Below are positions 63,079 to 63,963 of a stretch of DNA of 64,000 nt, piece after piece. Source of the stretch: a virus (taxonomy: Duplodnaviria > Caudoviricetes); IMG/VR virus record IMGVR_UViG_3300013830_000002, positions 102,779-166,778 of that record. One strand, given 5' to 3'. The position numbers and the translations under genes are program-made. Positions within the stretch are counted from its first letter, which is position 1, and each line of letters starts with the position of its first letter. The notes beneath the pieces are model-generated. The model had not been told where the DNA came from. It searched no databases and was given only the letters and a program-made list of their open reading frames with translations.

Positions 63079-63963
63079 CTAGGTGTGAGGCAATAGGTAA
63101 CCTGCTTGGTTTGGGAAATAAATTTATATACTCCACTTTTTTATTTCTTTTTATTCTTTTATGGATTATACTCAAGTAATAGGAAACACAAATGAATTGC
63201 AGTGTATAATTGCTTTTTTATAGTTAGGATATTAGTGTTCAATTCCTTATGGGAACAGTGCTAAATATGATTTTATTGTTGATATAGGAAAAACTTTTAT
63301 TAGAATTCAATGTAAAAGTTCGCGGCCTGTTAAAGTCAGAGGGAGGACTGATTATAATGCTATTTGTTTTAGTACAGTAGCATCTACTACTAATACTAAA
63401 CAGATATAGAAACATAGATATACAACTTAGGACATAGATTATTTTGCAACTTGCTATAATAATAAAGTCTATGTAATTCCTGTAAATCAATGTTCTACAT
63501 CTAAAATTCTTAGATTTAGTCCCCCACTTAACGGTATTAAGACATATAATAAAGCTGAGGACTTTGAAGTCGAAAAAGTTTTTCCTCCAAATAAACAGTT
63601 TTTAGATTCCAAAGTAAAATATCTACAAAGATGTAGTATATCTCCTATTAAATATTACTGTCCTAGATGTGGAAAAGAAGTATCTACTAAAGGTAGTTTA
63701 TGTGAAGAATGCTCACATATAGCCCTTAGAAAAGCCTTTCGTCCTGATAGAAAAACTTTAAAAGATTTAATAAGAACCATTTCTTTTTCAGAATTAGGTA
63801 AGACTTATGGGGTATCTGATAAAACTATAGTAAAGTGGTGTAACTATTATCACTTGCCCTCTAAAAAGTCCATTATAGATACATTAACAAACGAGTAGTG
63901 GAGTATTATATAAACATTATTACCTGGACCAAGTTGTTGCTGGTTCGAGTCCAGTCACCTATA
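63079..63963 (+). tRNA. tRNA-Pro(TGG) split in the anticodon loop by an 812-nt insert (exons ~63079-63115 and 63928-63963)
   Basis: Joining gives CTTGG-TTTGGGA-CCAAG, T arm GCTGG-TTCGAGT-CCAGT, acceptor TAGGTG/CACCTA. Confidence 0.8.
63161..63913 (+). CDS. PD-(D/E)XK endonuclease (I-Ssp6803I-like) with Zn finger and HTH; TAG=Gln; absent from ORF track
   Basis: GNTNE..CSIPYGNSAKYDFIVD..RIQCKS; CPRCG..LCEEC; GKTYGVSDKTIVKW. Confidence 0.82.

Follow-up and report, generated by a model that had tools for sequence, protein, structure and literature searches.

The window analysed here is the final 64 kb of the 166,778-bp phage record IMGVR_UViG_3300013830_000002 in IMG/VR, a stretch of 64,000 nucleotides whose positions are used below unless the record itself is named. 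Near its end lies a proline tRNA gene, tRNA-Pro(UGG), that is split in the anticodon loop by an 812-nt insert carrying a gene for a homing endonuclease. In our reading the insert is a mobile intron that resides in phage tRNA genes, lacks a ribozyme and belongs to a type not described before, and it may be removed from the RNA. All features at the locus are on the plus strand. The 5' exon (63079-63114) comprises tRNA nucleotides 1-36 and ends with the anticodon UGG (63112-63114), the insert occupies 63115-63926, and the 3' exon (63927-63964) comprises nucleotides 37-73, the CCA end not being encoded. ARAGORN called no tRNA gene at the locus under its default settings. When introns were allowed, it reported a tRNA-Pro(UGG) at 63079-63964 with an 812-nt insert, and the exact junction, between nucleotides 36 and 37 (36|37), was taken from the family comparison described below. 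Joined in silico, the exons gave an ARAGORN cloverleaf whose anticodon loop has 7 nt, U33 and purine 37 and whose acceptor stem has one mismatch, C1xU72. The endonuclease open reading frame (ORF; 63161-63913) takes up 753 nt of the insert, and the non-coding remainder is 46 nt on the 5' side and 13 nt on the 3' side (59 nt in total). The initial annotation had described a tRNA-Pro(UGG) split by an endonuclease-coding insert, with about 45 nt before and about 14 nt after the ORF, and this description held. Two other "introns" reported by ARAGORN in the window, in a tRNA-Ile (253 nt) and a tRNA-Stop (719 nt), were chimeras of adjacent tRNAs. A scan for sigma-70 promoters and terminators around the interrupted gene gave no signal exceeding the shuffled expectation.

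The ORF is open over its 250 codons only if its five in-frame TAG codons are read as glutamine. TAG is read in this way by the phage, which has a suppressor tRNA-CUA at 55562 (55562-55637) and many ORFs that are open only with this reading. Residues 4-136 of the protein matched the PD-(D/E)XK domain PDDEXK_5 (PF11645; 3e-19, 69.7 bits) and, by sequence, the structure of I-Ssp6803I (PDB 2OST); beyond the catalytic domain there are a zinc ribbon (CxxC...CxxC, residues 167-184) and a helical, helix-turn-helix (HTH)-like C-terminus. An AlphaFold (AF2) model built from 33 homologues had a pLDDT of 91 and its top PDB match was again 2OST (TM 0.74 on the target), followed by Hjc resolvases. We found 332 homologues, mostly of about 250 aa and 46-57% identical. 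Conservation in the 33 homologues spanned the full length, including E12, D37, Q50, K52 and the C-terminal W247, so that the ORF is a genuine gene over its whole length. By sequence, fold and catalytic residues, the enzyme is an I-Ssp6803I-type PD-(D/E)XK homing endonuclease with predicted cleavage activity, as had been proposed. A second PDDEXK_5 gene (59198-59624; about 142 aa, three TAG codons read as glutamine) stands free between tRNA-Phe and tRNA-Leu(UAG), with no split tRNA around it. The first in-frame TAG of the ORF at 63161-63913 is codon 21, and both PDDEXK_5 genes have an in-frame TAG before the catalytic residues, so that the two enzymes should be producible only once the suppressor tRNA-CUA is active.

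Related inserts, the junction and mobility

Inserts of the same kind were found in more than 30 phage tRNA genes, of the isotypes Pro, Thr, Val, Gly, Ser, Ala and Asn, by an alignment-based homologue search combined with genomic context; a locus search with the single protein confirmed none. At least 12 phage contigs have the 250-aa form of the enzyme within tRNA-Pro(UGG), in inserts 788-848 nt long, and a form of 137-150 aa occupies shorter inserts (455-480 nt) in tRNA-Thr(UGU/AGU), Val(UAC), Gly(UCC), Ser(GCU), Ala(UGC) and Asn(GUU). The ORF begins 18-49 nt into the insert and stops 3-22 nt short of its end in 24 relatives, and in short-form members the stop codon falls within a conserved 3' motif. 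The standard genetic code suffices for most members; glutamine at TAG is required by the present copy, L006 and L011. The phages that carry the inserts come from very different hosts, with rumen and gut phages and a phage of Enterococcus among them. The 250-aa enzyme also occurs as a free-standing gene adjoining intact tRNA-Pro genes (L007, L012, L018 and L020), and L008 is a further free-standing copy. An exact search for the 3' exon of the present tRNA in viral contigs gave no hits, and the 18-nt 3' motif alone retrieved 14 loci, nine of which were chance matches within unrelated genes. The junction and isotype calls of ARAGORN were unreliable for the family, with labels such as Tyr-AUA, Asp-GUC and Stop-UUA, and L009, L013, L032 and L053 were missed.

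The position of the junction cannot be read from the window alone, where a GGA repeat permits cuts from 35|36 to 38|39. Across the family, the 36|37 cut alone gives a 7-nt loop, U33 and a purine at position 37 in every locus, mostly with A38, while in most loci a 37|38 cut would leave a pyrimidine, C or U, at position 37. After in-silico splicing at 36|37 a tRNA was called in 32 of the 33 loci, and the resulting isotypes fit the tRNA bodies, as in the Ser(GCU) case with its long variable arm. A cultured phage gave an independent view of the junction. In Enterococcus phage EFP01, removing exactly 463 nt between T36 and A37 yields a tRNA-Asn(GUU) that is 100% identical to that of phage iF6, and the EFP01 junction has no repeat and is hence unambiguous. 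The family comparison and the EFP01/iF6 pair together place the junction at 36|37, and the intron in the window is therefore 63115-63926. The initial annotation had put the insertion at 37/38, the archaeal and eukaryal site, and the insert at 63116-63927, and both are corrected here. The split tRNA-Asn of EFP01 (NC_047796.1, 105242-105777; L119:1426-1961) is unannotated in the public entry, which lists only the ORF, as "hypothetical protein" gp109.

The insert had been described as mobile, and presence/absence with clean boundaries, together with co-conversion at the present locus, bears this out. EFP01 and iF6 differ by the exact presence or absence of the 463 nt, and in about 29 sequenced relatives the gene is intact; in this cultured Schiekvirus group the insert thus occurs in one of about 30 genomes, with exons identical to those of the relatives. 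Among the Enterococcus phages the insert is rare, and it arrived very recently. In the present record, positions 1-296 (G000, L104) repeat the end of the window (62898-64000) without the insert, at 87-96% identity. The repeat opens with 59 identical nucleotides, changes at the end of the upstream ORF are mainly at third codon positions and a hairpin spacer shows compensatory changes. The repeat contains an intact tRNA-Pro(UGG) whose D and anticodon arms are strongly unlike those of the interrupted copy; from the T arm onward the 3' exon is identical, and the rest of the repeat almost so. The two record ends may thus be read as two haplotypes of one locus that were merged by the assembler, the record being a strain mixture there, and a circular or permuted genome is probable. 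The divergence is greatest at the insertion site, the co-conversion signature of homing. The C1xU72 mismatch can be explained in the same terms, as a donor-type C1 opposite a recipient-type U72. The intron-less allele, at record positions 186-260, is a candidate target of the present endonuclease, and the tRNA-Asn of iF6 is one for the EFP01 enzyme.

The terminal RNA rod and the search for a ribozyme

The ends of the insert are joined by a long helix, which we call the rod. Folding of the whole region paired both intron ends (z = -5.2). The 5' strand of the proximal helix (63105-63121) consists of anticodon-stem nucleotides 27-31, loop nucleotides 32-36 and the first seven intron nucleotides. 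Its 3' strand (63917-63933) consists of the seven nucleotides that pair with the intron start, CUG (63924-63926), which pairs with the anticodon, and exon nucleotides 37-43. Together they form a 17-bp boundary helix with one A.A mismatch, which confirms the one-mismatch extension of the anticodon stem that the initial annotation had proposed. The helix is followed by a 1x2 internal loop, with a conserved bulged A at 63122 (motif AA[A]Y; A in 27 of the 30 registered loci) on the 5' side and a conserved CA at 63915-63916 (motif R[CA]UU) on the 3' side. Then comes a distal helix between 63123-63137 and 63897-63914, whose sequence varies between members and covaries, and whose 3' strand overlaps the final codons and the TAA stop of the ORF.

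The co-folded ends of 22 loci share this one architecture, which was registered in 30 loci. In the exon part, the anticodon stem 27-31:39-43 is followed by 32.38 and 33.37, and the anticodon (34-36) pairs with the last three intron nucleotides in all members. Next, the intron start pairs with intron nucleotides -9 to -3 over 7 bp, or 6 bp in the Gly and Asn types, and beyond the internal loop is a distal helix of 6-17 bp; its sequence is not the same in any two loci compared, and its 3' strand may carry coding sequence. We compared the pairing with column shuffles in 28 distinct loci. The anticodon and the intron end were paired in 99% of cells, against 61% in the shuffles; the following 7 bp in 92% against 66%; and the distal helix in 95% against 60%. 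None of 2000 shuffles reached the observed pairing in any of the three intron-containing segments, and since the architecture recurs in 28 or more distinct loci, the feature is not due to chance. Most rod columns hold three to five pair types, and the final triplet of the intron tracks the host anticodon across eight anticodons. G.U pairs are common (G35.U in 19 of the 28 loci), which argues for selection on RNA and not on a DNA palindrome. We conclude from the covariation that the rod is under selection as RNA. The five free-standing gene copies have no terminal helix, and their cofold energies equal those of shuffles; the rod therefore belongs to the tRNA-embedded state and not to expression of the enzyme as such. 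A search for rod-only derivatives of the Thr type without an ORF gave no hits. Another idea, that the intron start is a copy of the 3' exon and so mimics the target, held by eye for some Thr and Pro members; the likeness was absent in Val and Gly and is not family-wide.

The centre of the 17-bp helix is nucleotide 35, and the two required cuts, after nucleotide 36 and after the last intron nucleotide, fall one nucleotide 3' of the centre on each strand. They are two-fold symmetric, lie 3 bp apart, have a 3-nt 3' stagger and flank the mini-helix of anticodon and intron end. The rod contains no bulge-helix-bulge (BHB): the helix is continuous over both sites and is disturbed by nothing larger than 1x1 mismatches (32x38 and i2). 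This bears on the possibility of an archaeal/eukaryal-type intron, cut at a BHB by an EndA-like enzyme. Such an intron would share the anticodon-loop site, an ORF within a defined RNA structure and a pseudo-two-fold symmetric substrate with the present element. The lack of 3-nt bulges, the site at 36|37 and not 37/38, and the EndA domain PF01974, which was unmatched in the phage and matched only in the four archaeal control genomes of the search, leave this reading next to no probability.

No sign of a known ribozyme was found in the insert. A search of 63050-64000 with the 4227 Rfam models at E<=10 returned only noise, with no group I, group II or small ribozyme, and at E<=1 no intron or ribozyme model matched inside the inserts of 20 related loci. 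As a control, the Rfam group I model (RF00028) found eight matches elsewhere in the window, at 12257-17483 on the minus strand. These eight matches crowd into about 5 kb, and three of them exceed the gathering score. With a non-coding remainder as short as that given above, the insert is ribozyme-less, there being no room for and no sign of a known ribozyme; the absence of a core noted in the initial annotation thus extends to all 21 inserts searched.

The initial annotation had also considered a cryptic or degenerate group I intron with its core overlapping the ORF. This idea draws on the only studied relative of the enzyme, I-Ssp6803I, which resides in the group I intron of tRNA-fMet in Synechocystis PCC 6803, and on the frequency of genuine group I introns in the present phage. 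The Synechocystis intron has 655 nt with a 150-aa ORF and a self-splicing core of about 200 nt (PMC1995217), whereas short members of the present family have only 455-480 nt with ORFs of 137-147 aa. At lax thresholds the 21 inserts gave no group I (Intron_gpI) hit, against the eight elsewhere in the window. Along the gene, homologous ORFs keep a flat level of synonymous-codon identity (0.45-0.77) with no constrained block, so an RNA core hidden beneath the coding sequence is unlikely. The U(-1)/omega-G rule also fails at the family junction, where the exon ends in G, U or C and the intron in G, A, C or U, and the 5' exon end pairs with the intron 3' end and not with a guide near the intron 5' end. 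We therefore regard a cryptic group I intron as very improbable.

A small ribozyme of a new kind, built from the rod itself, deserves somewhat more attention. The A/CA loop, the A.A mismatch and the weak central pairs might complete splicing, or might self-cleave both sites and leave 2',3'-cyclic phosphate (cP) and 5'-OH ends to be sealed by RtcB or by Pnk plus Rnl. An A.A mismatch two pairs from the 5' site is frequent and weak central pairs are available. The conserved sequence is limited to about 45-60 nt at both ends, which is the size of small self-cleaving ribozymes, and the presence of the element across very different hosts favours autonomy. The RtcB of EFP01 would suit cP/OH ends, and hammerhead-like and HDV-like motifs occur near these tRNA arrays. 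Nevertheless, a near-perfect helix in which both splice sites are paired offers poor geometry for in-line attack, the nucleotides at the splice sites are unconserved and none of the Rfam models matches, and this explanation seems unlikely to us.

Fate of the interrupted tRNA and possible splicing enzymes

Whether a functional tRNA is still made was judged mainly from the exons. The anticodon arm, though co-converted with the element, keeps U33, R37, A38 and the 7-nt loop across endonucleases that are only about 50% identical, and the family has a frequent C32xA38 mismatch, which weakens the rod. Exon identity was 0.5-0.92, compared with 0.36-0.66 at the saturated third positions of the ORFs; for the pair L055/L056 the values were 0.92 and 0.47. 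In all five complete genomes that were checked, the interrupted gene is the sole gene for its anticodon. Together with the covariation of the rod, the exon conservation indirectly favours removal of the insert from the RNA.

The same data have to be set against a simpler reading, in which the endonuclease gene has homed into its own target as a selfish insertion that is not spliced. The tRNA would then be dead, a loss that would be tolerated with phage tRNAs being dispensable or redundant, and the rod would serve the element, for example with the tRNA as a scaffold from which RNase P and RNase Z release a stable mRNA, or in the timing of translation. There is another tRNA-Pro(UGG) in the window, at 50291, so loss of the interrupted copy may cost little, and this copy, with its C1xU72 mismatch, looks like a recent chimera. 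Among Logan contigs of rumen runs, none joins 63114 to 63927, and contigs from RNA libraries span the unspliced junction, although these may be DNA carry-over, and the RNA data, being assembled contigs and not raw reads, give no verdict on splicing either way. Some members look decayed (L019, L023, L032 and L053). The second tRNA, the chimeric copy and the decayed members weigh against splicing. An unspliced insertion would also agree with the very recent invasion of the one Schiekvirus genome, where the exons are unchanged, and with the free-standing members of the enzyme family beside tRNA genes, and repeated invasion of intact genes could alone keep the exons healthy-looking. However, it leaves several points poorly explained. 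The co-converted anticodon arm retains features that only a tRNA needs, including the C32xA38 mismatch, and the exons are far better conserved than the synonymous sites of the ORF. A mere scaffold would not need a fixed helix length, a conserved internal loop and an ever-paired anticodon, the free-standing copies do without the helix, and in the complete genomes checked the interrupted gene has no substitute. We consider the unspliced insertion a serious possibility, only a little less likely than splicing by proteins.

Splicing by proteins requires enzymes that cut and join. The initial annotation had suggested a cut-and-ligate route, possibly linked to RtcB and Ro60. We found no RtcB in the phage record, and nothing ties the Ro60 gene of the window to the insert, so this link was not upheld; the cut-and-ligate route itself is possible, given an RNA ligase homologue in the phage (453 aa, ATP-dependent, PF09414 with a PHA02142 OB domain; record 55177-56538). 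Among intron-bearing genomes at least 99% complete, ten of ten have an ATP-dependent RNA ligase homologue, either PF09414, PHA02142-type relatives (E 1e-18 to 1e-25) or, in G006, a T4-type Rnl1. EFP01 has RtcB instead (198 bits), which brings the co-occurrence to 11 of 11. In G022, the one complete genome where the gene occurs solely as a free-standing copy, there is no PF09414/PHA02142-type, Rnl1 or RtcB ligase. This distribution fits the cut-and-ligate route but supports it weakly. In a further protein of the phage (290 aa; record 42544-43416; L103:145-1017), RNase H (PF00075) is fused to a P-loop AAA_33 domain that resembles a polynucleotide kinase. As for the cutting enzyme, the symmetry of the rod suggests a dimeric nuclease. 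RNase III was considered and rejected as the cutter: it leaves a 2-nt stagger, while only odd staggers restore a 7-nt loop, and no RNase III was found in the phage. The intron's own nuclease would match the cut geometry, judging from the cleavage reported for I-Ssp6803I, and cleavage of RNA by this fold is conjectural.

On this basis we suggest the following sequence of events. At the DNA level, the part of the model that is largely supported, the endonuclease would target the anticodon arm of insert-free tRNA genes, and repair would copy the element exactly between nucleotides 36 and 37, carrying flanking exon sequence along. In the transcript, the intron ends would pair with each other and with the anticodon, lengthening the anticodon stem to the 17-bp helix closed by the A/CA loop. 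A protein endonuclease, probably dimeric, would recognise the rod and make both cuts; the candidates are a host RNase and the PD-(D/E)XK enzyme of the intron itself, which would find in the rod an RNA version of the geometry of its DNA target. An RNA-repair ligase would then join the tRNA halves, of the Rnl type here and RtcB in EFP01. Translation of the ORF, which ends inside the rod, would compete with rod formation.

Bacterial viruses would thus have a protein-dependent tRNA splicing, in which a structure-reading nuclease cuts the rod and a phage ligase rejoins the tRNA. We regard this as quite possible, though we stop short of calling it probable, because the rod is absent from free-standing copies, exons and intron contrast in their rates and a ligase is always present. 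Several further considerations count against it. To our knowledge, neither bacteria nor their viruses have yielded a protein-spliced intron. The rod is free of bulges, its 3-nt stagger excludes RNase III geometry, and the phage record contains neither EndA nor RNase III. RNA ligases are common in large phages, and the negative control for their co-occurrence with the intron is the single genome G022. RtcB joins 2',3'-cP/5'-OH ends only and Rnl 3'-OH/5'-P ends; with these two ligase chemistries, one common nuclease would require healing enzymes in the phages that use Rnl, and the only kinase domain found in the present phage is the RNase H fusion.

Known systems and neighbouring elements

One of the closest known systems is the I-Ssp6803I intron of Synechocystis. 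The two elements share PF11645 with its D...QxK residues, 2OST as the top fold match and, as target, the palindromic anticodon arm of a tRNA gene. That intron reportedly lies directly 3' of the anticodon, and its enzyme is said, from the work of Bonocora and Shub in 2001, to cut either side of the triplet, leaving 3-nt 3' overhangs. It has a group I core, whereas here the ORF occupies 753 of 812 nt and no core is detectable; moreover, the present 250-aa form adds the zinc ribbon and the HTH-like tail, its hosts are phages and its gene is TAG-recoded. In logic, the closest systems are the mobile BHB introns of archaea, which encode LAGLIDADG enzymes such as I-DmoI and are cut by EndA and sealed by RtcB. 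They too combine an ORF with a short terminal RNA structure of pseudo-two-fold symmetry. Their removal by proteins is established, while ours is proposed, and the present element differs in lacking a BHB, in its site at 36|37, in the absence of EndA from the phage, in its bacterial virus hosts and in its endonuclease family.

Three other systems are comparable in part. Phage repair of the anticodon loop, by T4 Pnk and Rnl1 against PrrC or by RtcB pathways, likewise joins tRNA halves that are held by the anticodon stem. There a single break in a mature loop is repaired, whereas here two programmed cuts would remove 450-850 nt, and the link between ligase and intron is a proposed one. Free-standing homing endonuclease genes in phage tRNA clusters, such as T4 SegB with its intronless homing, resemble the homologues beside intact tRNA-Pro and the co-conversion gradient; the present gene differs in lying inside its own target with a covarying terminal rod. 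In the intervening sequences of bacterial rRNA, which are cut by RNase III and left unligated, an insert also replaces a hairpin loop and stands on an extended terminal helix. RNase III could not produce the 3-nt stagger here, and since a tRNA nicked in its anticodon loop would not decode, ligation would be needed, unlike in the rRNA case.

Enzymatic tRNA splicing is regarded as an archaeal and eukaryal trait, and the tRNA introns that we know of in bacteria and phages are all self-splicing group I ribozymes. If the present inserts are spliced, they would represent either protein splicing of an intron, for the first time in the bacterial world, or a minimal ribozyme of a new kind, and if proteins do the splicing, the RNA ligases of phages would gain a second job beyond repairing the damage of anticodon nucleases. 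If they are not spliced, a homing endonuclease gene can directly colonise a structural RNA gene, with the tRNA as its expression scaffold. Either way, standard tRNA finders miss such genes, and phage tRNA repertoires, along with the codon-use arguments derived from them, are undercounted. The cultured pair of EFP01, with the insert, and iF6, without it, renders the splicing question testable at the bench. Our literature search turned up no account of ribozyme-less endonuclease inserts in the tRNAs of phages, and the catalogue of Williams 2020 (bioRxiv 10.1101/2020.01.27.920355) holds group I cases only.

Several other elements were seen in or near these tRNA arrays. The array in the window includes a gene for a Ro60/TROVE and vWA protein (53871-55496) and, directly after the suppressor tRNA, a gene for a GIY-YIG endonuclease with an HTH (55612-56667). 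A RAGATH-1 hammerhead-like match at 45833-45925 scored 54.0 bits, slightly below the gathering score of 56.3 bits. In related phages, ROOL, GOLLD and RAGATH-33 RNAs adjoin intron-bearing tRNA arrays (L011:2622-3201, L022:625-1081 and L036:373-501). A weak match to an HDV-like ribozyme of the F. prausnitzii type (L017:2006-2062; 31 bits, E 0.06) starts precisely where the 3' exon of an interrupted tRNA-Pro ends and would fit 3' processing of this tRNA. The phage of locus L014, which also has a rod-type intron in tRNA-Pro, contains a tRNA-Asn and a tRNA-Glu with anticodon-loop inserts of 61 and 71 nt (L014:187-325 and L014:2710-2855). These inserts contain T-arm-like hairpins (GTTCAAATC) and represent a second, ORF-less kind of insert that is not group I.

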